Source: Bryobacterales bacterium (GTDB taxonomy: Bacteria > Acidobacteriota > Terriglobia > Bryobacterales > UBA6623). Taken from it: a stretch of 64,000 nucleotides of DNA. Positions 3,879-38,180 of the stretch are shown in pieces. The notes below the pieces were generated by a model. That model had not been told where the DNA came from, did no database searches, and saw nothing but the letters and a program-made list of their open reading frames with translations. Position numbers and translations under genes: made by a program. The stretch lies in the NCBI GenBank assembly GCA_963422375.2, contig OY729428.2, positions 1,312,001 to 1,376,000 of the forward strand, in the 5' to 3' direction. The stretch's first letter is position 1, and each line of letters opens with the position of its first letter.

Positions 3879-4208
3879 GTGAGAGACGCGCTGATTTTCC
3901 TCGCGCTCGCCGCGACGGCCCTGGCGGGCATGGGCGCGGTGGACGCGCTGGCCGGGCCGCGGCCCGGCGAGCTGGAGCGGGCCCTGGCGGCGTGGCTGGG
4001 CAAGACGTTCACCTGCGCCGGGGCCACGCTGTTCTTTCTCGGGATGAAGAGGGCGCTCTTCCCCGAGTTCGACATCTTGAGGGTGATCCACGGCGAGCCG
4101 CCGTTCAGCCCGCACGGGGAGGACGTGCCCCGGGCGGCCTACATCGTGGGCTGGTGCCTGCTGTACGGGGCGACGCTGCTGGCCTTCGGCTGGGGCGGGG
4201 CGTACTGA
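3879..4208 (+). CDS. Putative holin (about 3 TM segments)
   Basis: RBS AAGGAGG before GTG; hydrophobic segments; directly upstream of endolysin. Confidence 0.55.
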   Translation: MRDALIFLALAATALAGMGAVDALAGPRPGELERALAAWLGKTFTCAGATLFFLGMKRALFPEFDILRVIHGEPPFSPHGEDVPRAAYIVGWCLLYGATLLAFGWGGAY

Positions 4209-4747
4209 TGCTCCTGCTGGCCGCGGCCCTGCTGGCGGTGCCGTGCGAGCTGGCCCCGGTCTTCGAGGCCGAGCTCGGCCGCGCCGGGGCGGCGGCGATG
4301 CGGGCCGAGCTGGCCGCGCAGATCCACCGCGAGTCGTCGTGGCGCCCGCGGGCGCGCTCGCGCTACGCCAGCGGGCTGGCCCAGTTCACCCCGCCGACGT
4401 GGAGCGACATCGCGCCGCTGACGGTCCCGCCCTGCGACGGGGCGGACCCGACCGACCCGGGCTGCGCGATCCGGGCCCAGATCGTCTACATGCGGCGGCT
4501 GCTGGCGCGCTACCGCTTCGACCGCGACCGGTGGGAGTTCGCGTGGGCGGCCTACAACGGCGGCCCGGGCTGGATCGGGCGCGAGAAGTCGCGCTGCCGG
4601 CGCGAGCCGGGCTGCGACCCGCGGCGCTGGACGGGCCACGTCGAGCGGCACTGCATCCGGGCCGCCTGGGCCTGCGCGGAGAACCGCGCCTACCCGGCGA
4701 AAGTCGGGGGCCTCGTGCCCCTGTACCGGGAGGGCGGCTGCCGCTAG
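4208..4747 (+). CDS. Lytic transglycosylase (SLT) endolysin with hydrophobic N-terminus
   Basis: AQIHRESSW (catalytic E), GLAQFTP, AAYNGGPG, ENRAY; TGATG coupling. Confidence 0.9.
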   Translation: MLLLAAALLAVPCELAPVFEAELGRAGAAAMRAELAAQIHRESSWRPRARSRYASGLAQFTPPTWSDIAPLTVPPCDGADPTDPGCAIRAQIVYMRRLLARYRFDRDRWEFAWAAYNGGPGWIGREKSRCRREPGCDPRRWTGHVERHCIRAAWACAENRAYPAKVGGLVPLYREGGCR

Positions 4748-4766
4748 CGGGCCGGAAGGGAATCCG

Positions 4767-4982
4767 ATGAAGAATCCGATGAAGACGCTGGGGCTCGCGG
4801 CCCTGGGCTGCGCCTCGATCGTGCTCGCGTTCCTGTGGGCGATGAACGTGCACGAGCTGGGGCAGCGGATAGAGCGGATGGCCTTGCTGGCGTTCCAAAT
4901 CGGGCCGGCGGTGGTGTTCGTGTCGTGCGGCGCGCTGGCGCTGCATTTGGCCTGGCAGTGCGCCCGGGGGGACTGCGAGTGA
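4767..4982 (+). CDS. Small 2-TM membrane protein
   Basis: Two hydrophobic stretches, inside lysis cassette. Confidence 0.5.
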   Translation: MKNPMKTLGLAALGCASIVLAFLWAMNVHELGQRIERMALLAFQIGPAVVFVSCGALALHLAWQCARGDCE

Positions 4983-4984
4983 CC

Positions 4985-5308
4985 ATGATCGAAGCGTTGT
5001 GCACGGCCCTGGCGCTGGCGTTCCTGTCGCCGCTGGCGGCGTTCGGGGCGGCGGCCTTCGTCGAGGGCGGGCGGCGGCGGCGGGCTTACCGCCGGCTGGC
5101 GTCCGACCCCCTGGTGCGCGTCGGAGCGGCCATCGAGCGGCTGGAGATAGAGGGCCTGCCGCACACCGCCCTGCGGGACTGCCGGATCGTCGAGTTCGGG
5201 GTCGGGCGCATGGCCGTGCGGGACGCCCGGGGCGCGGTGATGACGTTCACCGGGCGGGAGTTCGAGCGCTTGCACCCCGTGTTCGCGCCGCCCGAGGAGC
5301 GGTCGTGA
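4985..5308 (+). CDS. Membrane-anchored hypothetical protein
   Basis: N-terminal TM then beta-rich domain; tightly coupled to neighbours. Confidence 0.5.
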   Translation: MIEALCTALALAFLSPLAAFGAAAFVEGGRRRRAYRRLASDPLVRVGAAIERLEIEGLPHTALRDCRIVEFGVGRMAVRDARGAVMTFTGREFERLHPVFAPPEERS

Positions 5309-5526
5309 CGGCGTTCCGGCCGCGCCCCGTGCCTGTCGCGGCGCTGTTCGCGGGGCTCGTATTGCTCGCGAACGCGCGCTGGCTGGAGATCGCCTGCGGC
5401 CTGCTGCTGGCGGTCGGCGGGCTGGCGGCCACGCTGCAGTCCGGGGCCTGGTCGGCGCTCTGCGGGCCTCTCGAGCGGCTGGCGGAGGCCTGGGAGGCCC
5501 GGAACCGCCGCAAGGGGGGCGCGTGA
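5305..5526 (+). CDS. Small 2-TM membrane protein
   Basis: GTGA overlaps at both ends; hydrophobic. Confidence 0.5.
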   Translation: MTAFRPRPVPVAALFAGLVLLANARWLEIACGLLLAVGGLAATLQSGAWSALCGPLERLAEAWEARNRRKGGA

Positions 5527-6173
5527 GCGCCTGGGCCCTGGCGGGGGCGCTGGCCGCCGGCGTCGGGCTGGGCTTCGGCCTGGCGGCCCTGCTGCCGTCC
5601 CCGGGCCTGCCCGCGCAGGCGCTCGCCATCTGGGAGCGGGCCGGCCGGGCGCGGATCGAGGCCGAGGCGCGAGCCTACGCGGCGGAGATGGGCTTGCGGG
5701 CCGCGGCCGTGAGGGAGGCTCGCGAGGCGGCCGAGGCCGCCCGCGCCGAGGCCGAGCGGAGGGGCTCGGAAACGGTCGCCGCGGTCGCCGCGGCCGAGCG
5801 GGAGACACTGCCCGTAGCCGCGCTCGACCGGAAGCGCTTGGAGCTGCTCCGCGCGGATCTGCCGGAGGCCCTGCGGGTCAGCGGCGAGGAGATCGAGGCG
5901 CTGTTCCGGCAGGTGGCCGCCTTGCGGGACGCCCTGGCGGCGGCGCGCCGGGAGACCGTTTCCGTGCGGGAGCTGGCCGACCGCTTCGAGGAGCTGGCGC
6001 AGCGCGAGCGGGCGGCCCGGGAGCTGGCCGAGGCCCGCGCCGGGACGCTCGAGGGGAGGCAGCGCTGGAAGCTGCGCTGGGGCGTCGGCGCGACGGCCGG
6101 CGCGGTCAAGGGATTCGGTCCCGGCTGGTCGCCGGGGGCGTCGATGGGCCTGACGGTCCTGTTCGGGAGGTAA
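5523..6173 (+). CDS. Spanin-like protein (N-terminal TM, coiled coil, C-terminal beta-hairpin)
   Basis: Architecture and position in lysis cassette. Confidence 0.5.
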   Translation: MSAWALAGALAAGVGLGFGLAALLPSPGLPAQALAIWERAGRARIEAEARAYAAEMGLRAAAVREAREAAEAARAEAERRGSETVAAVAAAERETLPVAALDRKRLELLRADLPEALRVSGEEIEALFRQVAALRDALAAARRETVSVRELADRFEELAQRERAARELAEARAGTLEGRQRWKLRWGVGATAGAVKGFGPGWSPGASMGLTVLFGR

Positions 6174-6176
6174 GGA

Positions 6177-6458
6177 ATGGGCGAGTGGGTGCAGGTCGTG
6201 GACAGCGGCGTCAGCCTGGTCATATTGATCGTGGCCGCGGCCTTCTTCGTGCAGCGCGCCACGCGCTCGATGAGCCAGATCGCGGAGATGCACGCGATGG
6301 TGTCCCGGTCCTGCGGGGATCTGGCGGAGACGCACGCCAAGGTCGGCGAGGCCTGCGACCAGCTGGTCTCGCTGACCGGCATGCGCCGCCGGGAGCACGC
6401 CGAGATCCTGCGGGCGATCGAGGAGCTGGGGGCGGCCCGGGAGCGCCGGGAGCGATGA
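6177..6458 (+). CDS. Single-TM holin-like protein
   Basis: RBS AAGGA; VSLVILIVAAAFFV TM followed by helical tail. Confidence 0.45.
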   Translation: MGEWVQVVDSGVSLVILIVAAAFFVQRATRSMSQIAEMHAMVSRSCGDLAETHAKVGEACDQLVSLTGMRRREHAEILRAIEELGAARERRER

Positions 6459-8722: not shown

Positions 8723-9030
8723 CCCGGGCCGTGGGGCTGCCGCTGCGCGAGGCCCTGGCCATGCCGTACTCGGAATACCGGGCCTGGGAACGCCACTTCC
8801 GGCGCTGGCCGCCCCTGGAGGCGGTCGCGCCGCGCCTGCTGGCGACCCTGGCCGCCCTGGTGAGTAACGCGGGATTCAAGGTGGACCGCCCGTTGCGTCC
8901 GGACGACTACGCGCCCTGGCTGACGAGCGAGAGCGCGCGGCGCCGCGCGCGGCAGGCCGCGGCGGCCGCGCGAGTCGGGGAAGCGTACCGCAGGAGCGGC
9001 GGGAACGGCAAGAGCGGCAGGCATGGCTGA
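8710..9030 (+). CDS. Tail assembly chaperone gpT extension reached by -1 frameshift
   Basis: -1 frame reads PFFVARAVGLPLREALAMPYSEYRAWERHF, typical gpT-like sequence. Confidence 0.75.
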   Translation, partial: PFFVARAVGLPLREALAMPYSEYRAWERHFRRWPPLEAVAPRLLATLAALVSNAGFKVDRPLRPDDYAPWLTSESARRRARQAAAAARVGEAYRRSGGNGKSGRHG

Positions 9031-12000
9031 AGCGATCCGCGCGGGCGGCGTCCTGCTGAGCATCCGCGCCGACGTCGCCCAGTTCTCGGGGTCGATGCGC
9101 CGGATGGGCAACGACATCCGGCGCCAGGAACGGGCCATGCGCGGCCTGCGCCGGACGGTGCAGCGCGCGGCGCGGCAGATGCAGTCGTTCCGCCGGAAGG
9201 TGATCTCGGTGCAGGCCGCGGTCGGCGTGGTTTCCGGAGCCGCCGGGCTGGGACTGATGATCCGGCGCTCGGCCGAGCTCGGCTCGACGCTGGTCGAGAC
9301 GAGCCAGCGCCTGGGGCTGACGGTCCGCGACCTGCAGGCCCTGCAGCGCGCCTTCGAGAGCGAGGGCGTGTCCGTGCAGGCCGTCAACACCGGCCTGCAG
9401 CGCTTCACGCGGCGGCTGGCGGACGCGGCGAACGGGCAGGGCCAGCTGCAGGAGGCCTTCCGGGCCCTGGAAGCGCCGCTGCGGGACGCGAACGGCCGGC
9501 TGCGCGATTCCCACGACGTGCTGCTCGACGTCGCGGAGGGCTTCAAGAACACGGGCGACCAGCAGGAGCGCGTGCGCCTGGCCCAGAAGCTGTTCGACAG
9601 CGAGGGCGTGGCCTTCGTCAACGTCCTGCAGCGGGGCCGGGAGGGGCTGCTCGAGCTGGAGAAGGGCTTCGAGCGGCTGGGCTTCGTCGAATCCCGGGAG
9701 GCGGCGGCGCGGCTCAAGGCTCTCGGACAGAGCTTCGCGGACCTCGACCACGCCGTGCGCGCGGGCGCGGCCCGGGCCGTGGCCGCGGCGGCCGTCGACC
9801 TGGCCTCCCTCAACGAGCGGGCCGGGGAGCTCGCGGCGACCCTCGCCGGGCGCGCGATCGCGGCCGTGGCGCACCTCGCGCGGAACCTGGACGCCGCCAA
9901 GCAAGCCGCGATCGCCTTCGGCCTGGCTCTCGGCGCCATGAAGATCGGCGCGTGGGTCGGCACCGTCCGGGCGGCGATCGCGGCCTCCGCGGGCCTCGCC
10001 GCCGCGTTGCGCGGCCTGAATATCGCCGTCGCCGCGTTCGGGGGGCCGGCGGGCTGGATCGTCGCGGCCGTCGGAGCGCTGGGCTACTACTTCCTGTCCG
10101 CCAAGGACTCCCGGAACGAGACCGACGAGCTCGTCGCGTCGATCCGCGAGGCGGAGATCGTGCTCGCGGGAATGGACGCCTCGGCGCGGAAGCTCGGGCT
10201 CGAGAGAGAGCTCGAGAAGGCCGCCGAGCACGCCGCCGAGCTCGCCCGCGAGATCGCGGCTTCGCTGCAGAAGCACGACGAGCTCATGGAGGCCATGAAA
10301 GCGGGAGCGCGAGGGACCGTGTATTTCGTGGGCCGGGAGGGCAGGATACGCGCAGGCCTCGAGGCGGATGCCGCGCGGACGGCAGAGGAAATCGAGCGGC
10401 TGCAAGCCGAGCTCGCCGCAGCGAACGGGGAGACCCGGAACGCTCGCGGCGGCGGCGGCGATGAGATCCTGCCGCGCGTCCCGCACGTCCCGGAGGACTA
10501 CTTCGCGCGGTACGCGGACGCCGCCGAGCGGAGAATCCGGCTTGCCAGGCAGGAGCTCGCACTGGTCGGCAAGACCGGGGAGGATCTCCTGCAGCTGCAG
10601 GCGCGGCACGCGGTCGTCAACCGGCTGCTCGACGAGCGGGCGCAGCTGGAGCGGAGGCGCGAGAGGGCGGCGGCCGAGTTCCGGGCGGCGGCCGAGGCGG
10701 GCGACCAGCGGGCGCTCGCGGCGGAGCGGGAGAAGATCGCGGAACTCGATCGCGAGATCGCGGCGATCGCCAAGGCCGAGGAGGGCAAGGAATCGCTCGT
10801 GGCCCTGGAGCGCGAGGCCCTGGAGACCGCGGAGCAGGCTCGCGACGCGGCCAAGGAGCACGCCGCGGCCAACGAGCGCGCGACGGAGGCTGCCGAGGCC
10901 CAGGTCCGGGCGCTCGAGACGGCCAGCGCGGCCAGGGCCGATGGCCGGAGGGAGCATCTCAAGCTGGTCGCGGCCGAGGACCGCGAACTGCGGAGTCGCG
11001 AGGAGAGCGCCCGCGCGACGATCGCGAGGAGCGCGGCCGGCGGGGATGCGGAATCCGAGGGAGAGGCCGCGGCCCGCAGATCGTTCGAGGACCAACTGCG
11101 CGGGCTGGAGGCCCGAAGGGTAGGTCTGGACATCGACCTCGGCGGCGCCGCCGACGGCGACGCGGTCGCTGAGATCGACGCGCAATTGGCGGGCGTCGAG
11201 GTCCGGATCGAGGAGCTCCGCAATCGAGACCTCGGGCCGCTCGCGGCCCGCCTGGACAGAGTGGCCGGCATGGAGCGCCTGGCCGGGACGATCGAAGAGA
11301 ACTCGGTCGCGGCCGCGGCGCAGGATGCCGAGGCCCGGATCGCCGCGCTGAGCGAGGCCAACGCCGCGGCGTTCGAGGCGGCGATCCGGCGGGGCGCGGA
11401 TCCGGAGCGGCTCGCGCTGGCCCTCGGAGAGTACGCGTCCGAGGGGTCGCAGCGCTTCCGGGCGGCCTCCGACGAGGCCTTCGAGGGCCTCAAGCGAGAC
11501 CTCGCCGCCAAGCGGCACGCGCTGCTCGCGGCGGCCGAGGAGTTCCGGCGCCGGGCCCGGGCGGCCGCAGGCGACGAGCGGCGGAACCAGCTCTTCGAGA
11601 ACGCCGCTGCCGCCGCGGCCGCCGCGGAGAATCTCCGGACGCAGCTCGGCGACGCGCCCGGGCTGCGGGCCGCGAATCGGGATCGGATCGAGCGGGAGGC
11701 GCGCGAGAGGCTGGTCGACGAGCGCTTCCGCCGCCGCCAGGCGATCCAGAGGGATCTGCTGGCGCTGTCCGAGTCGATGTCCCGGACGCTCTCCGACGGG
11801 CTGGCCCGGGCCGTCGAGCAGGGCGGCAAGCTGAAGGACCACTTCAAGGAGATCGGCCGGACGCTGCTGAACATGGCGCTCCGGAAGCTGGTCATCGACA
11901 AGGCGACGAGCGCGCTCTCCGGGGCCCTGTCGGGGCTGTTCGGCGGCGGGGGCGGCGGGGCGGCGCCCGGCAAGGCCGGCGGCGGCCCCGTCGAGGCCGG

Positions 12001-12280
12001 GCGGATCTACCGCGTCGGCGAGAGCGGCGTGGAGCTGTTCCGGCCGGCGGCGGCCGGTTCCATCGTGCCGAACCACCGCCTGCGGCCGCTCGCCGGCGGG
12101 AGCGAGGCGCCCGCGGTCACGCTCAACATCCGCGTCGAGTCCACGGACGGCCCCGGCGTGGAGGCGGCGATCCGGCGCCTGCGGCCGCTGCTGGCGTCCG
12201 ACGCGGCCGAGCTCGCGAAGGGCGCGGTGAGAACGGACCTGGCGCGGGCGTCGGGGCTCAGAGGGACGCTGCGTGCCTGA
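9023..12280 (+). CDS. Tape measure protein (1085 aa)
   Basis: Ala-rich helical; LLSIRADVAQF start; C-terminal AGGGPVEAGRIYRVGESGVELF. Confidence 0.92.
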   Translation: MAEAIRAGGVLLSIRADVAQFSGSMRRMGNDIRRQERAMRGLRRTVQRAARQMQSFRRKVISVQAAVGVVSGAAGLGLMIRRSAELGSTLVETSQRLGLTVRDLQALQRAFESEGVSVQAVNTGLQRFTRRLADAANGQGQLQEAFRALEAPLRDANGRLRDSHDVLLDVAEGFKNTGDQQERVRLAQKLFDSEGVAFVNVLQRGREGLLELEKGFERLGFVESREAAARLKALGQSFADLDHAVRAGAARAVAAAAVDLASLNERAGELAATLAGRAIAAVAHLARNLDAAKQAAIAFGLALGAMKIGAWVGTVRAAIAASAGLAAALRGLNIAVAAFGGPAGWIVAAVGALGYYFLSAKDSRNETDELVASIREAEIVLAGMDASARKLGLERELEKAAEHAAELAREIAASLQKHDELMEAMKAGARGTVYFVGREGRIRAGLEADAARTAEEIERLQAELAAANGETRNARGGGGDEILPRVPHVPEDYFARYADAAERRIRLARQELALVGKTGEDLLQLQARHAVVNRLLDERAQLERRRERAAAEFRAAAEAGDQRALAAEREKIAELDREIAAIAKAEEGKESLVALEREALETAEQARDAAKEHAAANERATEAAEAQVRALETASAARADGRREHLKLVAAEDRELRSREESARATIARSAAGGDAESEGEAAARRSFEDQLRGLEARRVGLDIDLGGAADGDAVAEIDAQLAGVEVRIEELRNRDLGPLAARLDRVAGMERLAGTIEENSVAAAAQDAEARIAALSEANAAAFEAAIRRGADPERLALALGEYASEGSQRFRAASDEAFEGLKRDLAAKRHALLAAAEEFRRRARAAAGDERRNQLFENAAAAAAAAENLRTQLGDAPGLRAANRDRIEREARERLVDERFRRRQAIQRDLLALSESMSRTLSDGLARAVEQGGKLKDHFKEIGRTLLNMALRKLVIDKATSALSGALSGLFGGGGGGAAPGKAGGGPVEAGRIYRVGESGVELFRPAAAGSIVPNHRLRPLAGGSEAPAVTLNIRVESTDGPGVEAAIRRLRPLLASDAAELAKGAVRTDLARASGLRGTLRA

Positions 12281-12991: not shown

Positions 12992-13579
12992 GTGGCGCTG
13001 ATCCCGTTCCCGGCGGGCGTGCCGGTGACGCGCTCGGACCTGGCCCTGGGGCATCCCGGCCAGATCGTGCTGCGCTCGCCCTACGGCGGCGGGACGCAGG
13101 TGCTCGGGCGCGGTCCCGGCATCTGGTCCGGACGGCTCGAGATCGGCCCGGCCGACCGCGCCTCGGTCGCGGACCGGCGCGCGGTCGAGGCCTTCCTGGC
13201 GCGGCTGCGGGGGGCCGGGAACACGTTCGAGGCGCCGTTGCACCGCCCCAGCGGCGGCTCGCTCGTCGCCGGGGCCGAGCTGTCGGTGCAGGCGGCGGGG
13301 ATCTACGCGGGCGGCCTGCGCGTGTGGGCGGACGGCTCCTCCGAGGGCCTCGTCGCGGGCGACTACGTGCGCATCGGCGAGCGCCTGTACCAGCTGGTCT
13401 CGGACCTGCGGGGCGGCCGCTGCGAGCTGGAGCCGCCGGCGACGCCCTCCGCGGGGCGGGGCATCGCCTGGGAGGGCGTCACCTGCCTGGCGCGCCGGAC
13501 CGGGCCCGAGCGCGAGCCGTGGAGGCTGGATCCCGACTTCGCCGGGCCGTGGGCGATCGAATGGGAGGAGGCGGCGTGA
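12992..13579 (+). CDS. Putative distal tail protein
   Basis: SPYGGGTQV..W, EAFLARLRG motif; position after tape measure. Confidence 0.6.
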   Translation: MALIPFPAGVPVTRSDLALGHPGQIVLRSPYGGGTQVLGRGPGIWSGRLEIGPADRASVADRRAVEAFLARLRGAGNTFEAPLHRPSGGSLVAGAELSVQAAGIYAGGLRVWADGSSEGLVAGDYVRIGERLYQLVSDLRGGRCELEPPATPSAGRGIAWEGVTCLARRTGPEREPWRLDPDFAGPWAIEWEEAA

Positions 13580-14625: not shown

Positions 14626-19740
<5,115 letters not shown>

Positions 19741-19747
19741 GAGCGAC

Positions 19748-21676
19748 ATGGATCCCGCCTACGTCATCAACGCCTTTCCCGAGCGGCGCGAGGCCGTCGC
19801 GTTCGAGCTCGAGCGCCACGGCGGCGCGGACCCGGCCGCGATCCGCTGGATCGGCGCCCCGCGCGGCAGCGCGGCCCGCGGCGAGCCGCTGTTCGCCTGG
19901 CCCCGCTGGCGCGAGGAGCGGACCGGGGCCCTGCTGACGTGGGGCGAGCTGGCCTGCTTCGCGGGGCACCTCGAGGCCTGGCGGCGCATCGCCGCCGGCG
20001 ACGCGGGCGGGGGCTTCGTCTTCGAGGACGACGCCGCGCTGACGGCCCGCCTGGACGGGCTGCCGGCGGAGGCCTTCGCCGGCGCCGGCCTGGTGTACCT
20101 GCACTCGCAGTGGCGCTGCGAGCCCGAGCCGGGCCCGGGCCCCTGGTGCGCGGCGCCGTACACGTGGACGCTGACGGCCTACTGGCTCTCGCGGGAGGCC
20201 GCGGCCGGGCTGGCCGCGGCGGTCGATCCGGACCGGATCGTGCCGGCGGACGAGTACGTGCCGTGGCACTGCGGGACGTGGGACCCGGCCTTCAACCCGC
20301 GCGTGCGCGGCGAGCTGGGGCAGCAGCCGCCGGCGGGGATCGCGGCCCGCTGCCTGCGGGAGCGGCCGGCCGGGCCGTCCGGGCGCTGGGAATCGTCCAC
20401 CGCGGCCGGCCTCTCCCCGCCGGCCTTCGACTTCGAGACGGTCGTCTTCGCCACCGAGCCGGCCCGGGCCGGGGAGGCGCTGGGGGCCCTGCGCGACCTC
20501 GGCTACCGCCCGCGGGTCCTCGGCGCGGGCGAGCCGGGCTGGGACGCCTCGGCGGAGGGCGGCATGCCCAAGCTGCGCTGGCTGCGGGAGGACCTCGCGG
20601 GATCCGACCCGCGGCGGCGCGTCGTGCTGGCGCTGGACGGCTACGACACGCTGCCGCTGGTCCCGGCCGCGGAGTTCTGGGCGCGCTTCGCCGGCATGGA
20701 CTGCCCGGCGGCGATCTCCGGGGAGCGCGGGCTGTGGCCCCCGCGCAACGAGTGGGTGCCCGACCCGGAGCGCGCCTGGCAGGCGTACTGGGAGGACTGG
20801 CCGTGGCGCCGCGAGGGCGTCGCCGAGCGCTACCGGCACGCGTGCAGCGGCGCCTTCGCCGGGCACGCCGAGACGCTGGACTGGGTGCTGCAGGGCCTGC
20901 CGCCCGACGGCGACGACCAGGCCTGGATGCAGGCCGCCGTGCTGGCCAACCCGCGCGCCTGGCGGGTCGACTCGGAGGCCTGGCTGTTCCAGTCGCTGGG
21001 CGGCGAGGAGGGCGCCGTCGAGCGGCGCGACGGCGCGGCCTTCAACGCGGCCACCGGCTGCTACCCGGCGATCCTGCACGCCAACGGCCCGCAGGCCTCG
21101 CTGGACCCGTTCCTGCCGGGCCCGCCGCCGGCGGCGCTCGAGCTGGACCCGGACGCCGGGCGCTGGCTGGAGCTGGCGCCGGGCGTCCTGGGCATGCCGT
21201 TCCTGTCGCGCGCGGCCTGCGCCGGGCTGCTCGAGAGAGCGGAGGCCAGCGACGCCTGGCAGCCGCTGGAGGGGGACGCCGTGCCGGGCGACGAGCTGCG
21301 CCTGCGCGCGCTGGACCCGGCGCTGCGGGCGTGGCTGGACGAGACCCTGCGCGCGGTCGTCGGTCCGGCGGTCGCGGCGCGCTGGCATCCCGCCGCCTGG
21401 AAGGACCCCTGCGACGCCTTCCTGATCCGCTACCGCCCGGACCGCCAGCCGTCGCTGCGGCTGCACGAGGACATCAGCTACCTGTCCTGCTCGATCCGCC
21501 TGCGGCGGGCCTGCGCGGGCGGGCAGCTGCGCTTCCCGCGCCAGAATTTCGACGACGGCGCGGCGGACGACGGCTGGCTGCTGCTGTGGCCGTCGCGGAT
21601 CACGCACCCGCACCGCGTGCTGCCGGTGCGGCGGGGGACGCGCGCCAGCCTGGTGGTGTGGACCCCGGAGAGCTGA
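19748..21676 (+). CDS. Putative trifunctional collagen-modifying enzyme: GT25 + PLOD-type glycosyltransferase + lysyl hydroxylase-like 2OG-Fe(II) dioxygenase
   Basis: [58 protein letters not shown]...THPH...GTR. Confidence 0.88.
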
Positions 21677-21691: not shown

Positions 21692-22534
21692 GTGCCCGCG
21701 TTTATCCGCTGGCGCGTCGAGGCCGCCGGGGGGACCGACTTCGGCGCGCCCCAGCCCGTGCTGGCGGGCCTGCCGGGCGGCCCCGGACAGCCCGGGCCCA
21801 AGGGCCTGCCCGGCCGGGCCGGACCGCCCGGAGCCCCCGGGCCGACCGGAGTCCCCGGGCGGGCGGGGCCGGCCGGGCTCCCCGGCCTCGAGGGGTTCCC
21901 GGGGCTGCCCGGCGCCGAGGGCGCCGGGGGCTCCCGGGGGGCCCGGGGGCTCCGGGGCCTGGACGGCGCGCCGGGCGCGAAGGGGGTTCCCGGCCGCCGG
22001 GGGGCGCCCGGAGCGCAGGGCGCGCGGGGGGATCCGGGGGGCCCGGGGGCGCAGGGGCGGCAGGGCTCTCCCGGCGCCCGGGGCCCGGCCGGCGCGCGCG
22101 CCGCGCGAGGCGAGGCCGGCAGGGGCGGCGCGGGCGGAGACCCCGGCGCGGGCGGAGACCCCGGCGCCCGGGGCGCCGGCGGCACCCCCGGAGACCGCGG
22201 CAGTCCCGGCTCCCGGGGAGACAGGGGCTCCCTGGGCGACAGGGGCCCCCCGGGCGCCGGAGGAGACGCCGGCGCCCCCGGAGACCGCGGCAGTCCCGGC
22301 TCCGGGGGAGACGCCGGCGCCGCCGGAGGCATCGGTATCACCGGCTCGGACGGGGCCGGCGGGGCCGGCGGCGAGCCCGGGGGCGCCGGAGACCAGCCCA
22401 GCGGGCCGGACGGATGGTCCGGGCCGGCCGGACCGCCGGGAGACCCGGGCGGGAACGTCTACCTGCAGGCTTACGACGACGGGTACGGCGAGGGCTACTT
22501 CGACGGCGAGGACGACTGCTACTCCGAGCAGTGA
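21692..22534 (+). CDS. Collagen-like protein A
   Basis: Long Gly-X-Y tract; short N- and C-terminal caps. Confidence 0.9.
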
Positions 22535-22542
22535 CGCGAGCG

Positions 22543-23409
22543 ATGCCGACGACGACGTGGACGACGGAGGCCGCCGCCGTCGAGCGGGACGACCTGCGCG
22601 CGCGGGACTTCGGCCCGGCGCGAGCGGACTCCGCGCTGCACCCGCCCGGGCCGCCCGGGCCGCGCGGGGAGACGGGCCCGCCGGGGCCCCGGGGCCCGGA
22701 CGGGCCTGCCGGGCGCCCGGGGCCGCCCGGGCCGCGCGGGGAGACGGGCCCGCCCGGCGCGTTCGCCCGCGCCGGCGCCCCGGGCGCTCCGGGCCCGGCC
22801 GGCCCCAAGGGCTCCGCGGGCCTGCCCGGACAGCCCGGAACCCCCGGCGCTCCGGGCGCCAAGGGCTGGCCCGGACGGCAGGGCCTGCCGGGAGCCGAGG
22901 GAGCCGGGGGCGCCAAGGGCCGCAAGGGCTACAGGGGCCCCGGGGGCCCCGGGGGCTCCAAGGGCTCCAGGGGCGCCAAGGGCGCCAAGGGCTACAGGGG
23001 CCCCGGGGGCCCCAAGGGCGTCGAGGGCCGGAAGGGCTCCGACGGCGCGCGGGGCGCCAAGGGATACAGGGGCGCCAAGGGGACCAAGGGGACCAAGGGC
23101 TCCAAGGGGACCAAGGGCCTCAGGTCCTTCCCCTTCCGCGGGCCCCGGGGCCCCAAGGGCTACAGGGGCAGCCCCGGCCCGGCCGGCGGGACCGGCCGCG
23201 GGGGCTACGCGGGCGCGCGGGGCCCGCGCGGGGCCCGCGGGCCGGCCGGCGAGCCGGGCCCGATCGGCCAGGTCTACCAGGAGCCGCTGCGCGGCGACCC
23301 CGGGCCGAAGGGGCGCAAGGGCGCCAAGGGCAGGCGCGGCCGGACGCTGGGCTACTCCTCCGGGTACGCGGCCGGGCATGCTGACGGATACGCGGATGCC
23401 GGCTGCTAG
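22543..23409 (+). CDS. Collagen-like protein B, Lys-rich (alternative GTG start 22531)
   Basis: 3' part of listed ORF 19939..23409; GPPGPRGET and GAK/GSK/GTK triplets. Confidence 0.9.
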
Positions 23410-24265
23410 CGGGGCGCTGTGGACGATCGTCGCGCGCGCCCCGGACGCCCGCTCCGTGCGGGCCGGGGGCTTCGGCGCGCCGCGGCTGTACGCCGGCCCC
23501 GTCGGCCCCGTCGGCGAGCGCGGACGCCCGGGACCGCCCGGCGGCGAGGGGCACCCCGGACCGCCCGGACCGCCCGGACCGCGGGGCCCGCGCGGGCCCC
23601 GCGGCCGGCAGCGGCGCGGCGAGCGCGGACGCCCCGGGGCCGTCGGCCAGCGGGGCGCGCCGGGCGACCCGGGACCGGCGGGCCGGGGCGGCGACCCCGC
23701 CCCCGACGGCGCGCAGGGCGACAGGGGCGCCCGGGGCCTGCCCGGGAGGCAGGGCGACCCCGGCCCCGGCGGCGCGCAGGGCGACAGGGGCGCCCGGGGC
23801 CTGCCCGGGAGGCAGGGCGACCCCGGCCTCGGCGGCGCGCAGGGCGACAGGGGCGCCAAGGGCGTCAAGGGCTCCAAGGGGCGCAAGGGCTACAGGGGCG
23901 TCAAGGGCGCCAAGGGCGCCAAGGGCGCCAAGGGCGCCAAGGGCGCCAAGGGCGCCAAGGGCTCCGACGGCGCGCGGGGCGCCAAGGGCCCCAAGGGGTA
24001 CAAGGGCGCCAAGGGGTACAAGGGCGCCAAGGGCGCCAAGGGCGCCAGGGGCCGGAAGGGCCCCAAGGGGTACAAGGGCGCCAAGGGGTACAAGGGGTAT
24101 AAGGGATACAAGGGGAGCAAGGGCGAGGCCGGCTACTATTCCGGCAGCCCGTTCAACCCCGAGGACTACCGGGGGGCGCCCGGGCCGCCCGGCTCCAAGG
24201 GCGCCAAGGGCGCTTCCGGAGGAGGACGCAACTATGGCCGGACGACGCTACCGCATGCTCGCTGA
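23396..24265 (+). CDS. Collagen-like protein C, Lys/Tyr-rich (alternative start 23378)
   Basis: Gly-X-Y tract with GAK/GYK runs. Confidence 0.9.
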
Positions 24266-24497
24266 CGGCGACCCGGACAAGCTCTCGGCGGAGAGCTTCC
24301 GCGCTTTCGGCGAGCTGGCCGCGCGGCGCGGGAGGGCCCCCGTCACCCTCTGGGTGCTCGAGTCCGACGAGGAGCTCTCCGCCGAGGGCGCCCGCCCGCT
24401 GCGCCCGCTGCCGGACGGCACCTGGGAGGCTCCCGGCGGCCGCCGCTGGCGCCGCTTGACCGGGACCCCCGGCGGCGCGGAGGGCCCCCGCGCGTGA
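24234..24497 (+). CDS. Small hypothetical protein in collagen module
   Basis: RBS GGAGG; overlaps both neighbours. Confidence 0.6.
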   Translation: MAGRRYRMLADGDPDKLSAESFRAFGELAARRGRAPVTLWVLESDEELSAEGARPLRPLPDGTWEAPGGRRWRRLTGTPGGAEGPRA

Positions 24498-25048
24498 ACG
24501 GCCCCTGGAGCCTGGTGCCCGGCGCCGTCGACGACTGCGCGGGCCTGCTGCGCGCGCTGCTCGACAGCACGGAGCTGCGCCCCGGCACCGTCAACGGCGA
24601 CGGCTCCGTGCGCCCCGACATCCGCCGCTCCGCCGTCGGCTGGCCCGACCCCGCCCGCCACGCCGCCGAGCTCGCCCGCGTGCGCCGGGCCGTTCTCGCG
24701 GCCAACCGCGAGCTGTGGGGCTTCGATCTCGACGGCGGCGAGGAGTGGCAGCTCACGCACTACACCCATCTCGACGCGGGCGTCTACGAGCGGCACATGG
24801 ACTGCTCGCTGGAGGGCGGGCGGCCGCGCTGCCGCAAGGTCTCCGTCTGCGTCAACCTGTCCGACCCGCGCGACTACGAGGGCGGCTCGCTGCGGCTGGG
24901 GGCCGTGGGCCAGCCCGACCGCGCGGCGCTGCGCCAGCGCGGCGCCGCGCTGGTCTTCCCCAGCTTCGTCGAGCATCGCGTCACGCCCTTGCTGGCCGGG
25001 GAGCGCTACTCCCTCGTCGCCTGGTTCTCCGGGCCGGCCTGGCGCTAG
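24494..25048 (+). CDS. 2OG-Fe(II) dioxygenase (PKHD/prolyl-hydroxylase-like)
   Basis: HMD, RKVSVCVNLSDPRDYEGG, VFPSFVEHRVTP, GERYSLVAW. Confidence 0.9.
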   Translation: MNGPWSLVPGAVDDCAGLLRALLDSTELRPGTVNGDGSVRPDIRRSAVGWPDPARHAAELARVRRAVLAANRELWGFDLDGGEEWQLTHYTHLDAGVYERHMDCSLEGGRPRCRKVSVCVNLSDPRDYEGGSLRLGAVGQPDRAALRQRGAALVFPSFVEHRVTPLLAGERYSLVAWFSGPAWR

Positions 25049-25202: not shown

Positions 25203-25595
25203 GTGGCAGCGGACCCTAGGCACGGTAGCGCGATCCGTGCGAGGGCCCTGAAGCCCCGCCGCACGGTACGCTGGGAGACGTCGAGCGGAACCCTTTGCGA
25301 GAGCGTTGCCGGGCGGGCCCGCGAGGGCCCGCCCTATTCGTATCGGGAGCGGGAGCGGGGCATGGGAACGCGGACGCTGCACTTCCTGGCAGCCTTCGAT
25401 CAGGTCTGCGACAGGGAGCTGCTTCCCATGAGGCAGGCCGAGGAATGTGGCGCCCGGAGAACAATCGACGAGGCGGCGGCAGTGGCGCTCGGTATCGCTC
25501 CCGATGCAATCGCGGACTGGAGAAGGCGTTTGGCGTTGGAGCCGACGATCACCAATGTGCGCGTCAGGGAACCCGGGAGCGAAGAGGCATCCTGA
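25203..25595 (+). pseudogene. Possible C-terminal gene remnant (restriction-modification enzyme-like)
   Basis: Only the last ~75 codons look protein-like; sits just upstream of the ATPase. Confidence 0.3.
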
Positions 25596-25641
25596 GCATG
25601 GCCCTGAACGCGAAGCACACGGATTTCCAAGGGGCTTGAGC

Positions 25642-27738
25642 ATGTCTGTCGAATACTCGATGAGAATTTCCCGGCTTACCGTCGACAAGTTGGGGGTCAA
25701 GCTCTACGACAAGGTGTCCGCCGTCATCGCCGAACTCATCGCGAACGCCTACGATGCCGATGCCACACATGTGACGGTTCGAGCGCCGATGGGGCAGTTT
25801 CTGGCGACTCGAGCCGGAGGCACCGTGGCGGACAAGGGCTTCAGCATCGAAGTCGACGACGACGGCATCGGCATGACGCCTCAGCAGGTACAGGACTTCT
25901 TTCTCGTCGTCGGTTCCGAGCGGCGGAACGACACCAGCCGAGGCGACCGTTCGCCCCGCTACAGACGTAAGGTCATGGGCCGCAAGGGCGTCGGAAAGCT
26001 GGCACCCTTCGGTATCTGCAAGACCATCGAGGTGATCAGTGCCGGCGGAGATTTCATCGACGGCGGGGGTGCGACCCCGGGCGCCACGGGCTACCTCACG
26101 TCCCACATCGTCCTCTACTACGATGGCATCACGGCGCTCGATGATGAGCCCGACGAACGCTACAAGCCGGTCGTGGGCGACCGCGATGAGTCTTACTCCC
26201 CGAAGTCGGGGACTCGAATCATCCTGAAGGACTTCAGCCACCGGAGGGTCCCCGAGCTCAATGTCCTCGGCCGCCAGCTCGCCCAACGCTTTGGTATCCC
26301 GTCGACGGACTGGAATGTCCAGCTTCTGGACAACACGGAATCCACTCCGTCACCGGTGACGGTCGGCACCTTCGACATTCAGACGATGCCGAACACGAAG
26401 CTCACGTTTGGGCAGAATGGAACTGTACTCAACCCCGACGGTGCTCCTGCGATGGACCAGTCGGCCGGATTCGAACATGAGGGCATATTTCGCCCCATCA
26501 CAGGCTGGATGGCGTACTCGAAGGCTCCCTACAAGGACGAGCTCATGGCTGGGGTGAGAATCTACTGCCGCGGCAAGATCGCCGCCCAGACATCCATCTT
26601 CAACCAGCGGGCCGGCTTTACCGGCGAGCACAACATCCGCTCCTATCTCGTCGGCGAGCTCCACGCCGACTGGCTCGACGAAGAAGAAGACCTCATCCAA
26701 ACCGATCGACGGGACATCCTCTGGTCGGACGAACTCGCTGCCGCCTTCCAAGCTTGGGGCCAGAGAATCGTCAAGAAGATCGGCACCCTGTCGCGGGAGC
26801 CCATGCGGAGAGCGACTTTGGATCTGTTCCTCGAGACGGGCGATGTCGACGCTCGCATCCAGAACGCCTATCCGACCGAAGAGCAACAAGACATTCGCAA
26901 AAGCGCGAAAGAGGTCGCCGAATCCTTCGGTCGCACGATCAGCCGAGGGGATGTCGAAGATGCCAGCGTCGTGAACGAACTGGTCGATCTGAGCATCACC
27001 CTCGCGCCCCACATCACGCTCAACGCCAAGATGAAGGAAGCGGTCGCCAGCGCCGACACGCCGCTCTCTGTCCTAGCTTCGTTCCTGCGTACGGCGCGAT
27101 TGGCCGAACTGTCCTCGTTCGGCAGAATCGCGGAAGACCGCCTCAAGGTCATCGACCGCCTCGAAATTCTGAAGGACGCCGACGACACCGACGAGAACGA
27201 TCTTCAGCGGCTGATCACTGACGCTCCCTGGTTGATCAACCCTGAATGGGCGCCGGTGACCGAAAACCAAACCTTCGCGAGTTTGCGCCGGGAGTTCGAG
27301 AAGTACTACAACGACAAGACCGGCCAGTCCATTTCGTTGTCCGATTTCCAGAAGACGGGCAAACGGCCGGACTTCGTCTTGTCCAATCAGGAAGGCACGG
27401 TGCAGATCATCGAGATCAAGAAGCCGGGCCATAGACTGTCGAACCCGGAAATGGACAGGATCGTCACCTACTACGAGAACATGGAGGCGTTCCTTGACGA
27501 CCCTGGGCATACCGCGTTTCGCATGCACTTGGCCGACTTCCATGTCACCGTGGTCTGCGACAGGCTCGGTTTGAGCGGTTCTCCGCGCGCCGCCTTTGAT
27601 GGTTATCGTGACAAAGGCAGACTGACGCGCATGGACTGGACGGCGTTTCTCCTGAAATCGGAACAAGTGCACCAGGATTTTCTCAGCGAGGCCCAGCGTC
27701 AGCGTGCCGCCGGACCAGCGGTTCCCGACGGCCATTGA
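25642..27738 (+). CDS. GHKL/MORC-type ATPase with C-terminal PD-(D/E)XK nuclease-like domain
   Basis: ELIANAYDADA, DDGIGM, GRKGVGK, GTRI; RPDFVL...IIEIKKP; start reassigned to ATG 25642. Confidence 0.88.
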   Translation: MSVEYSMRISRLTVDKLGVKLYDKVSAVIAELIANAYDADATHVTVRAPMGQFLATRAGGTVADKGFSIEVDDDGIGMTPQQVQDFFLVVGSERRNDTSRGDRSPRYRRKVMGRKGVGKLAPFGICKTIEVISAGGDFIDGGGATPGATGYLTSHIVLYYDGITALDDEPDERYKPVVGDRDESYSPKSGTRIILKDFSHRRVPELNVLGRQLAQRFGIPSTDWNVQLLDNTESTPSPVTVGTFDIQTMPNTKLTFGQNGTVLNPDGAPAMDQSAGFEHEGIFRPITGWMAYSKAPYKDELMAGVRIYCRGKIAAQTSIFNQRAGFTGEHNIRSYLVGELHADWLDEEEDLIQTDRRDILWSDELAAAFQAWGQRIVKKIGTLSREPMRRATLDLFLETGDVDARIQNAYPTEEQQDIRKSAKEVAESFGRTISRGDVEDASVVNELVDLSITLAPHITLNAKMKEAVASADTPLSVLASFLRTARLAELSSFGRIAEDRLKVIDRLEILKDADDTDENDLQRLITDAPWLINPEWAPVTENQTFASLRREFEKYYNDKTGQSISLSDFQKTGKRPDFVLSNQEGTVQIIEIKKPGHRLSNPEMDRIVTYYENMEAFLDDPGHTAFRMHLADFHVTVVCDRLGLSGSPRAAFDGYRDKGRLTRMDWTAFLLKSEQVHQDFLSEAQRQRAAGPAVPDGH

Positions 27739-28838
27739 CGAACATGACTCCGACGGCGATCGACATCTTTGCCGGCGCTGGGGGCCTGACGGTTGGCCTC
27801 AAACGCGCGGGCTTCCGCGTTGTCGCTGCGGTGGAGATCGAGGCCCATTCATTCGCTACCTACAAGGCGAACCATCCTGAGGTGCGGTGCCTGAAGCAGG
27901 ACATCGCCACGGTCTCCGGCGACGCTCTTTTCGAGCTCGCGGGAACAGACCGAATTGATCTACTGGCAGGTTGCCCGCCGTGCCAAGGCTTCACCAGCCT
28001 GACTGCAAAGTACAAGGGTAGGGAAGATCCTCGTAACGCACTCGTTCTCGAGATGGCCCGCCTCGCCGAGGAAATGCGGCCGCGGGCGATCATGATGGAG
28101 AATGTCCCCGGATTGGCACGAAAGGGCGGATCGCTATACGGTCGAATGCAAGCGCGACTCCAGGCGCTCGATTACCGACTGACAGATAGGATACTGCAAG
28201 TCGCTGATTACGGTGTCCCGCAGTTTCGGCGACGATTTGTCCTACTCGGTGGTCAAGGCTTCGAGATCGCCCTCCCGGACGCGACTCATTCCGGTACGCC
28301 GACTGGTAACCTTACGCGTTGGCGCACGGTAGGTGACACGATCAAGAACATGCCTGAACCCCTCACCTTGGCGGAGGCCAAGGCAAGGGGAGAGGTCGAG
28401 CGGTCCGACTGGCATGTCGTTCGAAAACTGTCGCGCGAGAACATCGAACGCATTAAGGCGGCGAAGCCAGGTGAGACATGGGCGCACATTCCCGAGCATC
28501 TCCGGCCGGCCTGTCACCGTGACGGCTATGTCGGATTCACCAATGTATACGGGAGGATGGTTTGGGACCGACCGTCACCTACGATTACCGGCGGCTGCAC
28601 CACTCTAAGCAAGGGCCGCTTTGGTCATCCGAATGCCGACCGGACGATCTCCGTACGGGAGGCCGCACTTCTCCAGACCTTTCCCCGAGACTACCGCCTT
28701 GACACACCGTTCATGGATTATGTGTGTAACATGATAGGCAACGCATTGCCGTGCGACTTTGCGGAAGCCCTCTCGCGGCGATGTCTAGACGAGCTTGGCA
28801 AACAGGCGAAAAGCATGTCCCCGACATTCTCCAGCTAG
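27735..28838 (+). CDS. DNA cytosine-5 methyltransferase
   Basis: FAGAGG, GCPPCQGF, ENVPG, PQFRRR, REAALLQTFP, IGNALP. Confidence 0.95.
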   Translation: MTNMTPTAIDIFAGAGGLTVGLKRAGFRVVAAVEIEAHSFATYKANHPEVRCLKQDIATVSGDALFELAGTDRIDLLAGCPPCQGFTSLTAKYKGREDPRNALVLEMARLAEEMRPRAIMMENVPGLARKGGSLYGRMQARLQALDYRLTDRILQVADYGVPQFRRRFVLLGGQGFEIALPDATHSGTPTGNLTRWRTVGDTIKNMPEPLTLAEAKARGEVERSDWHVVRKLSRENIERIKAAKPGETWAHIPEHLRPACHRDGYVGFTNVYGRMVWDRPSPTITGGCTTLSKGRFGHPNADRTISVREAALLQTFPRDYRLDTPFMDYVCNMIGNALPCDFAEALSRRCLDELGKQAKSMSPTFSS

Positions 28839-36204: not shown

Positions 36205-36727
36205 CGACGCGCGCGCGATGCTCGGGGCGATCACCCTGACGGCCGAGCTGTGCGGGGCGGACCTGAGCGAGCGGGCCCGGGCGGCCATGGTCCGGCGCCT
36301 GGAGCCGTTCGGCCGCGCGGCCGTGCTGGCCGCCCTCGACCGCGTGCAGGCGGAGCATCACGGGAGGCTGACCCTGGCGGCCGTGATCGACCGCATCGAG
36401 GACGGGCGGCCGGGCCCGGAGGAGGCCTGGGCCGTCTGCTGGCGCGACGAGAGCGAGTCGGCCTGGCTGACCGCCGAGCAGATCCGGGCGGCCCGGGCGG
36501 CCGCCCCCCTGGTGCGGGCCGGCGACCCGGTCGGGGCCCGCATGGCCTTCCTCGAGGTCTACCGGCGCGAGACGCGGATCGCCCGCTCGGCCGGCCGCCC
36601 CGCGGCATGGCGTCTCGTCCCGGGCTCCGATCCGGAGCGCCTGCGAGAGGCCGTCCGCCTCGGCGCGGCGCGAGGCCTCGCGAGGGCGCTGCCGCCGGCC
36701 CCGAACGGGGCGGATGTGGCCGCATGA
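36194..36727 (+). CDS. Putative helicase loader/inhibitor
   Basis: DGRPGPEEAWA, GDPVGARMAFLEVY; follows replication gene. Confidence 0.6.
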   Translation: MSGSDARAMLGAITLTAELCGADLSERARAAMVRRLEPFGRAAVLAALDRVQAEHHGRLTLAAVIDRIEDGRPGPEEAWAVCWRDESESAWLTAEQIRAARAAAPLVRAGDPVGARMAFLEVYRRETRIARSAGRPAAWRLVPGSDPERLREAVRLGAARGLARALPPAPNGADVAA

Positions 36728-37992: not shown

Positions 37993-38180
37993 CGATTCTG
38001 TCCACGTTCGGTCCACGGAGGGGCGGCGAGGCCGGCGCGGAGTGGGCTCGATACCGCCTCGGATTGCTGGCCGTAATCCGTTGCGGAAACGGTAGTTGCG
38101 CTTGTTGCGCTTGTCCCTGCCCGCCTGCGCGGGCCGGGACCCTCCGGACGCGGCATGCTGTTCCACTGCAACGGCTGGTG
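37993..38180. other. Putative attR region
   Basis: GTCCACG direct repeats at 38000 and 38011; junction into host gene near 38159. Confidence 0.55.

Follow-up and report, generated by a model that had tools for sequence, protein, structure and literature searches.

Can the three steps that turn a collagen lysine into glucosyl-galactosyl-hydroxylysine be joined in a single bacteriophage protein? To our knowledge, the hydroxylation and glucosyl-galactosyl (Glc-Gal) glycosylation of collagen lysines count as a hallmark of animals, and mimivirus is taken to be the only exception among viruses. The question was raised by a stretch of 64,000 nucleotides from a Bryobacterales bacterium (Acidobacteriota; assembly GCA_963422375.2, contig OY729428.2, positions 1,312,001 to 1,376,000 of the forward strand), which as a whole is called the window here. 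A first-pass annotation, made from the letters alone, had read the open reading frame (ORF) at window positions 19748-21676 as a fusion of the animal enzymes COLGALT and PLOD covering the entire lysine route. This ORF, its neighbours and its relatives were analysed in this work, and its product is referred to as the enzyme. The reading that we favour, with a probability of about 0.7, is that of a single-chain cytoplasmic enzyme whose three active domains would modify the collagen-like fibre proteins of the phage itself, either ahead of their trimerisation or while it proceeds.

Identification of the enzyme gene

The ORF at 19748-21676 was present on the + strand as annotated, with an ATG start codon and a product of 642 aa. 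A Shine-Dalgarno sequence, AGGAG, was read at 19739-19743 (+), 4 nt 5' of the ATG and overlapping the TAG stop codon of the preceding gene, which encodes a J-like central tail fibre. The enzyme gene starts 8 nt after this fibre gene, and 16 nt beyond its end begins the first of three collagen-like genes; all of these genes share one strand. Fifteen motifs had been quoted from the translation, and all of them were recovered as single copies and in the order given, far above the chance expectation. Those of the first domain were YVIN (residues 5-8), GELACFAGH (66-74), FEDDA (92-96), an 11-residue motif (138-148) and IVPADEYVP (164-172). The middle domain carried GGMPKLRWL (271-279), LDGYD (296-300), GERGLWP (325-331), SGAFAG (367-372), DDQ (389-391), LFQSL (413-417) and HANGP (444-448), and the C-terminal domain an 18-residue motif (558-575), THPH (619-622) and GTR (630-632). 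The PLOD counterparts cited in the annotation agreed with the HMMER alignment to human LH3 (PLOD3).

The N-terminus of the enzyme has neither a signal peptide nor a membrane segment, the first beta-strand beginning the chain. Since a signal peptide and an endoplasmic reticulum (ER) retention signal are both absent, the enzyme would be cytoplasmic. No NCBIfam model matched it, and cluster look-ups gave no name more informative than 'hypothetical protein'. Part or all of the gene was found as contigs in 8 sequencing runs belonging to 5 studies; no RNA run was listed among them, which says nothing on expression.

The G+C content of the region of the enzyme gene is about 80% and, as a consequence, many long ORFs appear in other frames and on the opposite strand. 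The ORFs overlapping the enzyme gene in this way (for instance 19475-21613 on the minus strand, 712 aa) were considered and rejected, as they had no homology support and full-length homologues were found only in the + frame.

Domain composition and predicted structure

Three domains were delimited in the enzyme. Residues 1-228 (19748-20431, +) form a GT25 domain like GT2, the catalytic glycosyltransferase (GT) domain of COLGALT1, and are a putative hydroxylysine galactosyltransferase. Residues 224-456 (20417-21115, +) form a PLOD-type GT-A domain like the N-terminal GT of LH3 and mimivirus R699, and are a putative glucosyltransferase. Residues 457-642 with the stop codon (21116-21676, +) correspond to an Fe(II)/2-oxoglutarate (2OG) lysyl hydroxylase (LH) domain. 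Pfam GT_PLOD (PF25342) matched residues 249-449 (6.4e-12, 45.6 bits against a cut-off of 27), Glyco_transf_25 matched residues 52-101 only (8.9e-7, 29.4 bits against a cut-off of 24), and 2OG-FeII_Oxy_3 matched residues 578-639 under its 27-bit cut-off (4.5e-5, 24.8 bits).

A phmmer search against the sequences of the Protein Data Bank (PDB) gave 11 distinct sequences at E<=0.01, every one of them a collagen-modifying enzyme. Four LH3/PLOD3 constructs matched at about 1e-21 over two collinear stretches, query residues 250-450 (GT) and 478-637 (LH), and one isolated LH3 GT domain was also retrieved. Four COLGALT1 constructs matched query residues 50-172 (6e-5 to 1e-4), and the mimivirus proteins R699 and L230 were found at 1.8e-4 and 3.3e-3, respectively. 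When the N-terminal 231 aa were searched alone, they matched the C-terminal catalytic half of COLGALT1 at 3.6e-6. The LH region matched the LH domain of LH3 with an independent E-value of 1.3e-12, and LH3 and L230 were the sole matches to this region at E<=0.01.

Two domains of the animal proteins are absent. With the GT ending near residue 456, the LH domain follows from about residue 457, and the accessory (AC) domain of PLOD is missing. Likewise, the chain begins at the GT2-like domain and the GT1 domain of COLGALT is missing; in COLGALT1, GT1 is an N-terminal non-catalytic domain for dimerisation and LH3 binding. The domains of the enzyme therefore belong with the PLOD LH, PLOD GT and GT25/COLGALT families and lie outside the full-length PLOD and COLGALT architectures. 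Consequently, the proposed COLGALT and PLOD fusion holds as to the three domain types in one chain and has to be amended in that the enzyme is not a simple join of the two animal proteins.

An AlphaFold2 model of the enzyme, built on an alignment of 57 sequences, had a mean predicted local distance difference test (pLDDT) value of 92.3 and a predicted template modelling score (pTM) of 0.83. The top Foldseek match of this model was full-length LH3 (3e-25) with a global TM-score of only 0.30, indicating that the domains match those of LH3 but that their arrangement differs. The absence of any structural match to PLOD or COLGALT had been named beforehand as the result that would speak against the fusion, and the matches obtained with VIA-align were strong. 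Model residues 224-456 superimposed on the human LH3 GT (6wfv) with Z 29.5 and a root-mean-square deviation (rmsd) of 1.9 over 217 residues, followed by R699 (Z 28.9), which is likewise collagen-specific. Residues 1-228 matched COLGALT1 339-579 (9evj) with Z 24.6 and rmsd 2.2 over 216 residues, compared with Z 18.5 for mimivirus R655 and 15.9 for a bacterial beta-1,4-galactosyltransferase. Residues 457-640 matched the L230 LH domain (Z 22.2, rmsd 2.5 over 175 residues), compared with 14.7-17.1 for prolyl hydroxylases; this domain is modelled as a double-stranded beta-helix nearer to LH domains than to other 2OG oxygenases. By sequence as well as in the predicted structure, each of the three domains is thus closest to a collagen-specific enzyme, and the structural scores stand above those of generic relatives.

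Conservation of the active sites

Conservation was counted in 57 full-length relatives sharing 24-55% identity. In the GT25 domain, E93 and D94 were each present in 56/57, D95 and D168 in 57/57 and C70 in 55/57. These residues align to E435/D437 of COLGALT1 (the Glu-Asp-Asp Mn2+ motif), C412 and D522, and COLGALT1 mutants in the Glu-Asp-Asp motif, Cys412, Trp495 and Asp522 are inactive (PMC12003778). R13, an Arg in 50/57 relatives, may match COLGALT1 Arg351, and no counterpart of COLGALT1 Asp570 could be assigned in the enzyme from the alignments. In the middle GT, D297 (57/57) and D300 (56/57) align to the Asp-x-x-Asp motif of LH3, and the offset of the phmmer alignment to LH3 reproduces LH3 D112 and D115. 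W330 (54/57) was also conserved, as were D389, D390 and Q391 (55/57, 54/57 and 56/57; the DDQ of LH3), H444 (56/57; the His of the LH3 HGNGP) and N446 (52/57).

The LH domain contains H573, D575 and H622, each found in 57/57 relatives, which the HMMER alignment places on the Fe(II) triad HxD...H of LH3. The 2OG-binding position R632 is Arg in 31 relatives and Lys in 26, that is, Arg or Lys in 57/57. The equivalent LH3 residues are, we assume, H667/D669/H719/R729. The annotation had judged the metal- and 2OG-binding residues intact, and these counts bear it out. In addition, the tail-to-tail homodimer of L230 is locked by a hydrophobic residue, L873, four positions before the distal His (PMC5802723); its equivalent in the enzyme is I618, and Val, Ile or Leu occupies this position in 56/57 relatives.

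Residues for metal binding, cofactor binding and catalysis are therefore invariant or nearly so throughout the family in each of the three sites. This bears on the possibility that one or more of the domains is a degenerate scaffold, as COLGALT1 GT1 and LH3 AC are, with only some steps of the route performed by the enzyme. GT-like domains without catalytic activity do occur in these very families (PMC12003778), but near-invariant catalytic and metal residues in three domains at 24-55% identity would be unexpected for a scaffold, and we hold this explanation to be very improbable.

The same residues have to be weighed for a different explanation, according to which the fibre lysines are hydroxylated but the GT domains build a product other than Glc-alpha1,2-Gal-beta-hydroxylysine. 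Glucose could be placed directly on hydroxylysine as L230 does, other UDP-sugars could be used, or one GT could act on Thr/Ser or hydroxyproline of the same fibres. L230 indeed yields glucosyl-hydroxylysine (PMC9546862), the donor specificity of GT-A domains is not readable from these alignments, and Thr is common in the Y position of the neighbouring collagen-like proteins (276 of the 3199 triplets counted below). However, both GT domains match two collagen-specific enzymes best, not generic GTs, and the Glu-Asp-Asp, Cys and Asp residues of COLGALT1 and the DxxD, DDQ and HxN residues of LH3 are kept. We consider a different product unlikely.

Collagen-like proteins as probable substrates

The genes on both sides of the enzyme gene encode proteins with Gly-X-Y repeats. 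Upstream lies the gene of the J-like central tail fibre or host-specificity protein (14626-19740, +; 1704 aa), assigned to PHROGs tail fibre families (phrog_31, 'central tail fiber J') and matched by Pfam Collagen at 4.4e-34. It contains 100 Gly-X-Y triplets with 14 Lys in Y and 1 in X. Downstream, collagen-like protein 1 (21692-22534, +; 280 aa; Pfam Collagen 4.4e-23) has 75 triplets, with 2 Lys in Y, none in X and 26 Pro in Y. Collagen-like protein 2 (22543-23409, +; 288 aa), recognised from its translation and triplet count, has 73 triplets with 19 Lys in Y and none in X, and collagen-like protein 3 (23378-24265, +; 295 aa; Pfam Collagen 1.2e-31) has 76 triplets with 28 Lys in Y and none in X. 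Every lysine of the three small proteins (49/49) thus lies at Y.

Collagen lysyl hydroxylases act on X-Lys-Gly, that is, on the Y position of Gly-X-Y. The Lys content of the collagen-like proteins is not an effect of composition, because the enzyme encoded among them has only 2 Lys in its 642 residues. Across the 6.0-Mb genome, Lys-bearing collagen-like ORFs were found only in the three copies of the prophage that carries the enzyme gene. The J-like fibre and the three collagen-like proteins are therefore the probable substrates, as fibre chains, and the location of the enzyme gene among Lys-rich collagen-like tail-fibre genes suggests that the enzyme probably decorates the phage fibres.

The sole other collagen-like ORF of the genome (C2:2430783-2431733) has 49 triplets of the GGTGPP type and zero Lys. 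It lies about 7 kb from a segment, C2:2438739-2441184, which is 95.6% identical to window positions 3954-6419.

The numbers of triplets of the three small collagen-like genes are near-equal within a locus and differ between loci. They are 75/73/76 in the window and 86/85/85, 57/58/57, 42/45/41, 42/41/41, 70/69/71, 70/69/70 and 46/50/45 in the related loci L003, L006, L008, L010, L015, L017 and L025, respectively. Such near-equal numbers would fit three distinct chains in one ABC heterotrimeric triple helix. Natural collagens of bacteria and phages are usually described as homotrimers, and an ABC heterotrimer would be unusual. Between the prophage copies, collagen-like protein 3 has either 59 or 61 triplets (counted in runs >=10), so that the repeat length varies between copies by two triplets.

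The collagen-like genes are followed by a small ORF (24234-24497, +; 87 aa) with no Pfam or NCBIfam match. It is conserved: relatives in the corresponding position of L005, L006, L014 (the same place as L022) and L016 were detected by tblastn with 41-46% identity.

Occurrence in other phages

A word-indexed protein search gave 13 full-length homologues with 42-53% identity, and an exhaustive search of cluster representatives gave 569 matches at E<=1e-3, of which 65 were at E<=1e-30. The plain profile order GT25, PLOD-GT, LH was found in 98 of the 189 proteins fetched. A scan of genome contigs with the single enzyme protein detected no relative, and a scan of species genomes with an alignment of 16 sequences identified 16 loci, all in metagenome-assembled genomes of Acidobacteriota. 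Flanking collagen-like ORFs were present in 16/16 of these loci, the same Dit in 13/16 and a J-like fibre in 14/16.

Eleven records of cultured phages or amplicons contained a homologue with >=90% query coverage and about 25% identity, annotated as 'hypothetical protein' or '2OG-Fe(II) oxygenase'. They include the Synechococcus myophages S-CAM9, S-PRM1 and S-8S53/55/56, the Roseobacter podophage CRP-6 and a single-virus amplicon. In CRP-6, where the fibre is gp60 and the enzyme gp58, and in S-CAM9 the homologue lies just downstream of a tail-fibre gene, with 99 triplets (Lys 26 in Y, 0 in X) and 59 triplets (Lys 22 in Y, 0 in X), respectively. Over 20 loci, in which + strand ORFs with >=10 triplets and >=1 Lys were counted and other-frame ORFs without Lys were omitted, the 3199 triplets contained 668 Lys in Y and 33 in X.

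Finally, a scan of IMG/VR with a second sub-clade gave at least 550 matching contigs, and the loci of the best 80 of them were analysed. A collagen-like ORF was found in 49 of these 80, always upstream and on the same strand. Its detection followed the length of upstream DNA present, being 31/33 with >=7 kb, 37/41 with >=5 kb and 5/26 with <3 kb. The 5494 triplets of these 49 loci had 1938 Lys in Y and 0 in X. The architecture of the enzyme is thus that of a large unannotated phage family and not a one-off. A full-text literature search, with most subscription journals outside its scope, returned no description of PLOD- or COLGALT-type enzymes in tailed phages.

A second 2OG oxygenase

After the small ORF, the window contains a gene (24494-25048, +; 184 aa) for a prolyl 4-hydroxylase-like 2OG-Fe(II) oxygenase (Pfam 2OG-FeII_Oxy_3, 4.2e-12). 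Its AlphaFold2 model had a pLDDT of 95.6, and the best folds according to VIA-wide were those of protein prolyl 4-hydroxylases (4iw3, Z 18.8; 6f0w, 18.4; the PBCV-1 collagen prolyl 4-hydroxylase 5c5t, 17.3), compared with 13.4 for L230. The HxD...H triad (H101, D103, H161) and the 2OG-binding R171 were invariant in 46 sequences.

Pro made up 15-42% of the Y positions in 15 of the 16 loci with a homologue of this second oxygenase (L003-L018, L025 and L002 among them); the exception was S-CAM9, with 1.7%, and in L004, one of the 15, the match is a fragment of only 58 aa. In the 4 loci in which no homologue was found in the available DNA, Pro accounted for 0-11% of Y. That the presence of this oxygenase tracks Pro in Y supports, without proving, the hydroxylation of Y-position prolines. 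The second oxygenase probably hydroxylates the Y-position prolines of the same chains.

Prophage and host genome

The enzyme gene belongs to the late structural module of a temperate prophage of the siphovirus type. Upstream genes encode the capsid protein (1646-2860), head-tail adaptors, the tape measure (9023-12280), Dit (12992-13579) and the J-like central fibre. Downstream, the order is three collagen-like genes, the small ORF, the second 2OG oxygenase and a pair of genes for a HATPase and a C5 DNA methylase, and farther on a cI/LexA-type repressor, a YqaJ recombinase, a ParB-like gene and a tyrosine integrase (36250-37992) are found.

This setting was used to weigh the possibility of a lysogenic conversion, in which the GTs would modify the host lipopolysaccharide (LPS) or another surface glycan, the target of the oxygenase would be unrelated and the collagen genes would be there by coincidence. 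Prophages often carry glycan-modifying morons, many GT25 enzymes modify LPS and Pfam names GT25 a 'LPS biosynthesis protein' family. However, the gene is within the late tail-fibre operon and lies outside the moron region close to the repressor, and GT25 is fused to an LH-type oxygenase in 57/57 aligned relatives. The linkage to collagen-like ORFs with Lys in Y is also seen in virulent marine phages, the GT25 fold is nearest to COLGALT1 (Z 24.6) and not to the bacterial beta-1,4-galactosyltransferase (Z 15.9), and the N-terminus has no signal peptide or membrane segment. Lysogenic conversion is hence hardly credible here, and the tailoring of the phage's own fibres accounts better for these observations.

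The host genome has 6.0 Mb and 67% G+C and contains three identical copies of the enzyme gene, a copy number of the prophage to be read with care because two copies touch contig ends. Identity between the prophage copies is 99-100% over window positions 1-29367 and 95-98% from there to about 38160. The enzyme gene is sporadic in related bacteria: it was found in 0/30 other genomes of the genus, 2/36 other genomes of the family (these 36 include those 30), 0/24 genomes of two other families of the order and 1/400 other sampled genomes of the phylum.

Some other features of the prophage were observed. The HATPase_c_3 protein (763 aa, phrog_6203) and the C5 cytosine DNA methyltransferase are encoded at 25447-28838 (+), between the fibre module and the repressor. 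The G+C content of this stretch is 60-66% versus 75-84% in the remaining prophage, and the two genes are probably a moron or a defence/anti-restriction pair. A tRNA-Arg gene (anticodon CCT) lies at 4990-5062 (+), within the head/tail structural module. The integrase marks the right end of the prophage, the similarity to the other two copies ending near 38160. It is adjoined by a gene for an AMP-binding enzyme (38155-39105), which covers only the C-terminal Pfam profile positions 214-384, as if truncated by insertion.

Proposed function of the enzyme

The gene, its domains, the matching folds, the conserved catalytic residues and the recurrent neighbourhood of collagen-like fibre genes with Lys in Y were observed; from them we infer every catalytic activity, the identity and order of the sugars, which proteins are modified and how the phage benefits. 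During late expression, the C-terminal Fe(II)/2OG domain would hydroxylate Y-position Lys in Gly-X-Lys-Gly on unfolded chains, giving 5-hydroxylysine. The GT25 domain, with Mn2+ on its Glu-Asp-Asp motif, would then glycosylate the new hydroxyl from a UDP-sugar donor, galactose being suggested by analogy with COLGALT1. The PLOD-type GT, with Mn2+ on DxxD and a His, could attach the second sugar, which by analogy with LH3 and R699 may be glucose. In the same chains, the neighbouring prolyl-4-hydroxylase-like oxygenase would make hydroxyproline at Y. The modified chains would afterwards trimerise and join the tail tip, where the modification might benefit the phage by making the fibres more stable, soluble or protease-resistant or by helping them to contact the receptor.

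Several data weigh against this proposal. On the LH domain, the generic Pfam 2OG model reaches only 24.8 bits, short of its 27-bit cut-off. The position of COLGALT1 W495 is W140 in the enzyme, and among the relatives it is Tyr in 44/57 and Trp in 11/57. As the enzyme lacks the PLOD AC and COLGALT GT1 domains, its quaternary organisation need not be that of the animal enzymes. Moreover, the sugars might be others or be added in another order, since L230 puts glucose directly on hydroxylysine (PMC9546862). With regard to the substrates, 31 of the 80 IMG/VR loci have no collagen-like ORF in the available DNA, and 4 of these 31 have >=5 kb upstream. The loci are related and, for this reason, their counts describe a pattern and not independent events. 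Arg is also enriched in Y (305 versus 94 over the 20 loci), and the preference of Lys for Y could be due in part to triple-helix stability and not to modification. Finally, knowledge of the host is limited to an assembled genome, in which two of the three prophage copies touch contig ends.

Comparison with known collagen-modifying systems

Here the domain set of the animal enzymes forms a single soluble chain, predicted to be cytoplasmic, and its gene lies beside those of its probable substrates. It occurs in a temperate phage whose host is a soil-type bacterium, as well as in several cultured marine phages and hundreds of uncultured ones. Should the enzyme prove active, it would represent an unrecognised post-translational chemistry on phage receptor-binding fibres, bearing on host range and fibre stability. 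It would also provide a compact enzyme suited to the bacterial cytoplasm with which recombinant collagen could be hydroxylated and glycosylated; the mimivirus literature describes this need as unmet, stating that bacteria cannot yet produce glycosylated human collagen (PMC9546862). In that case, too, the origin of the PLOD and COLGALT enzymes could be tested with a far wider sample.

As regards this origin, long proteins of 825-988 aa (P0130, P0137 and P0162 among others) consist of GT25, PLOD-GT, an AC-like insert and LH. They have the same order as the enzyme, with GT25 first, and differ from it by the AC-like insert of 220-300 aa, absent from the enzyme. Cluster labels of the ESM Atlas assign the long forms to Nucleocytoviricota and forms of about 620 aa to Uroviricota, which is a lead only and not a test. 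A FastTree phylogeny of the GT and LH regions (109 rows, midpoint-rooted with no outgroup, partial-domain rows omitted) grouped 15 long forms and the 2 PLOD-like proteins in one clan versus the short forms (support 98-99). A tree rooted in this way, with only 2 PLOD-like rows, gives no direction of evolution and does not show the phage forms to be ancestral. Only tentatively, and with more doubt than confidence, can it be suggested that tailed phages, this prophage and abundant marine phages among them, build an animal-type collagen, with 4-hydroxyproline and glucosyl-galactosyl-hydroxylysine, on ABC heterotrimers of three chains with co-varying lengths, the lysine route being served by one chain of 642 aa, and that this compact architecture stands in the lineage ancestral to the giant-virus GT25-PLOD fusions and the animal PLOD.

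The enzyme resembles the system of Acanthamoeba polyphaga mimivirus in that a virus encodes its own collagens together with lysine- and proline-modifying enzymes. Mimivirus has L230 (LH and GT), R699 (a galactosylhydroxylysyl glucosyltransferase), R655 (GT25-like, a candidate) and the prolyl hydroxylase L593 (PMC9546862, PMC5802723). However, mimivirus, a giant virus infecting amoebae, makes these enzymes as separate proteins, whereas here one gene in the tail-fibre operon of a bacterium's tailed prophage encodes all three lysine-directed domains as a fusion. A further likeness is with the case of Iyer et al. (2010), who predicted that bacterial collagen-like and tail-collar proteins are hydroxylated by neighbouring 2OG dioxygenases of other families (PMC2938197). 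In both cases co-encoded dioxygenases would modify prokaryotic collagen-like proteins; the case as that paper sets it out did not concern a PLOD-type LH fused to GT25 and PLOD-GT (PMC2938197).

A third likeness is with human LH3/PLOD3 (6fxk, 6wfv) and COLGALT1/GLT25D1 (9evj; complex 8zgc), which have the same three catalytic domain types. The enzyme shares with them the HxD...H triad and the 2OG Arg of LH, the unusual Glu-Asp-Asp, the Cys and the catalytic Asp of the COLGALT1 type, and the predicted motif X-Lys-Gly. Its sequence identity with both is 16-27%, and it differs from them in lacking AC between GT and LH, GT1 and any signal peptide or ER retention signal, and in being encoded by a phage. 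What in humans is distributed over two proteins, LH3 and COLGALT1, totalling about 1360 aa, is found here in one chain of 642 aa.

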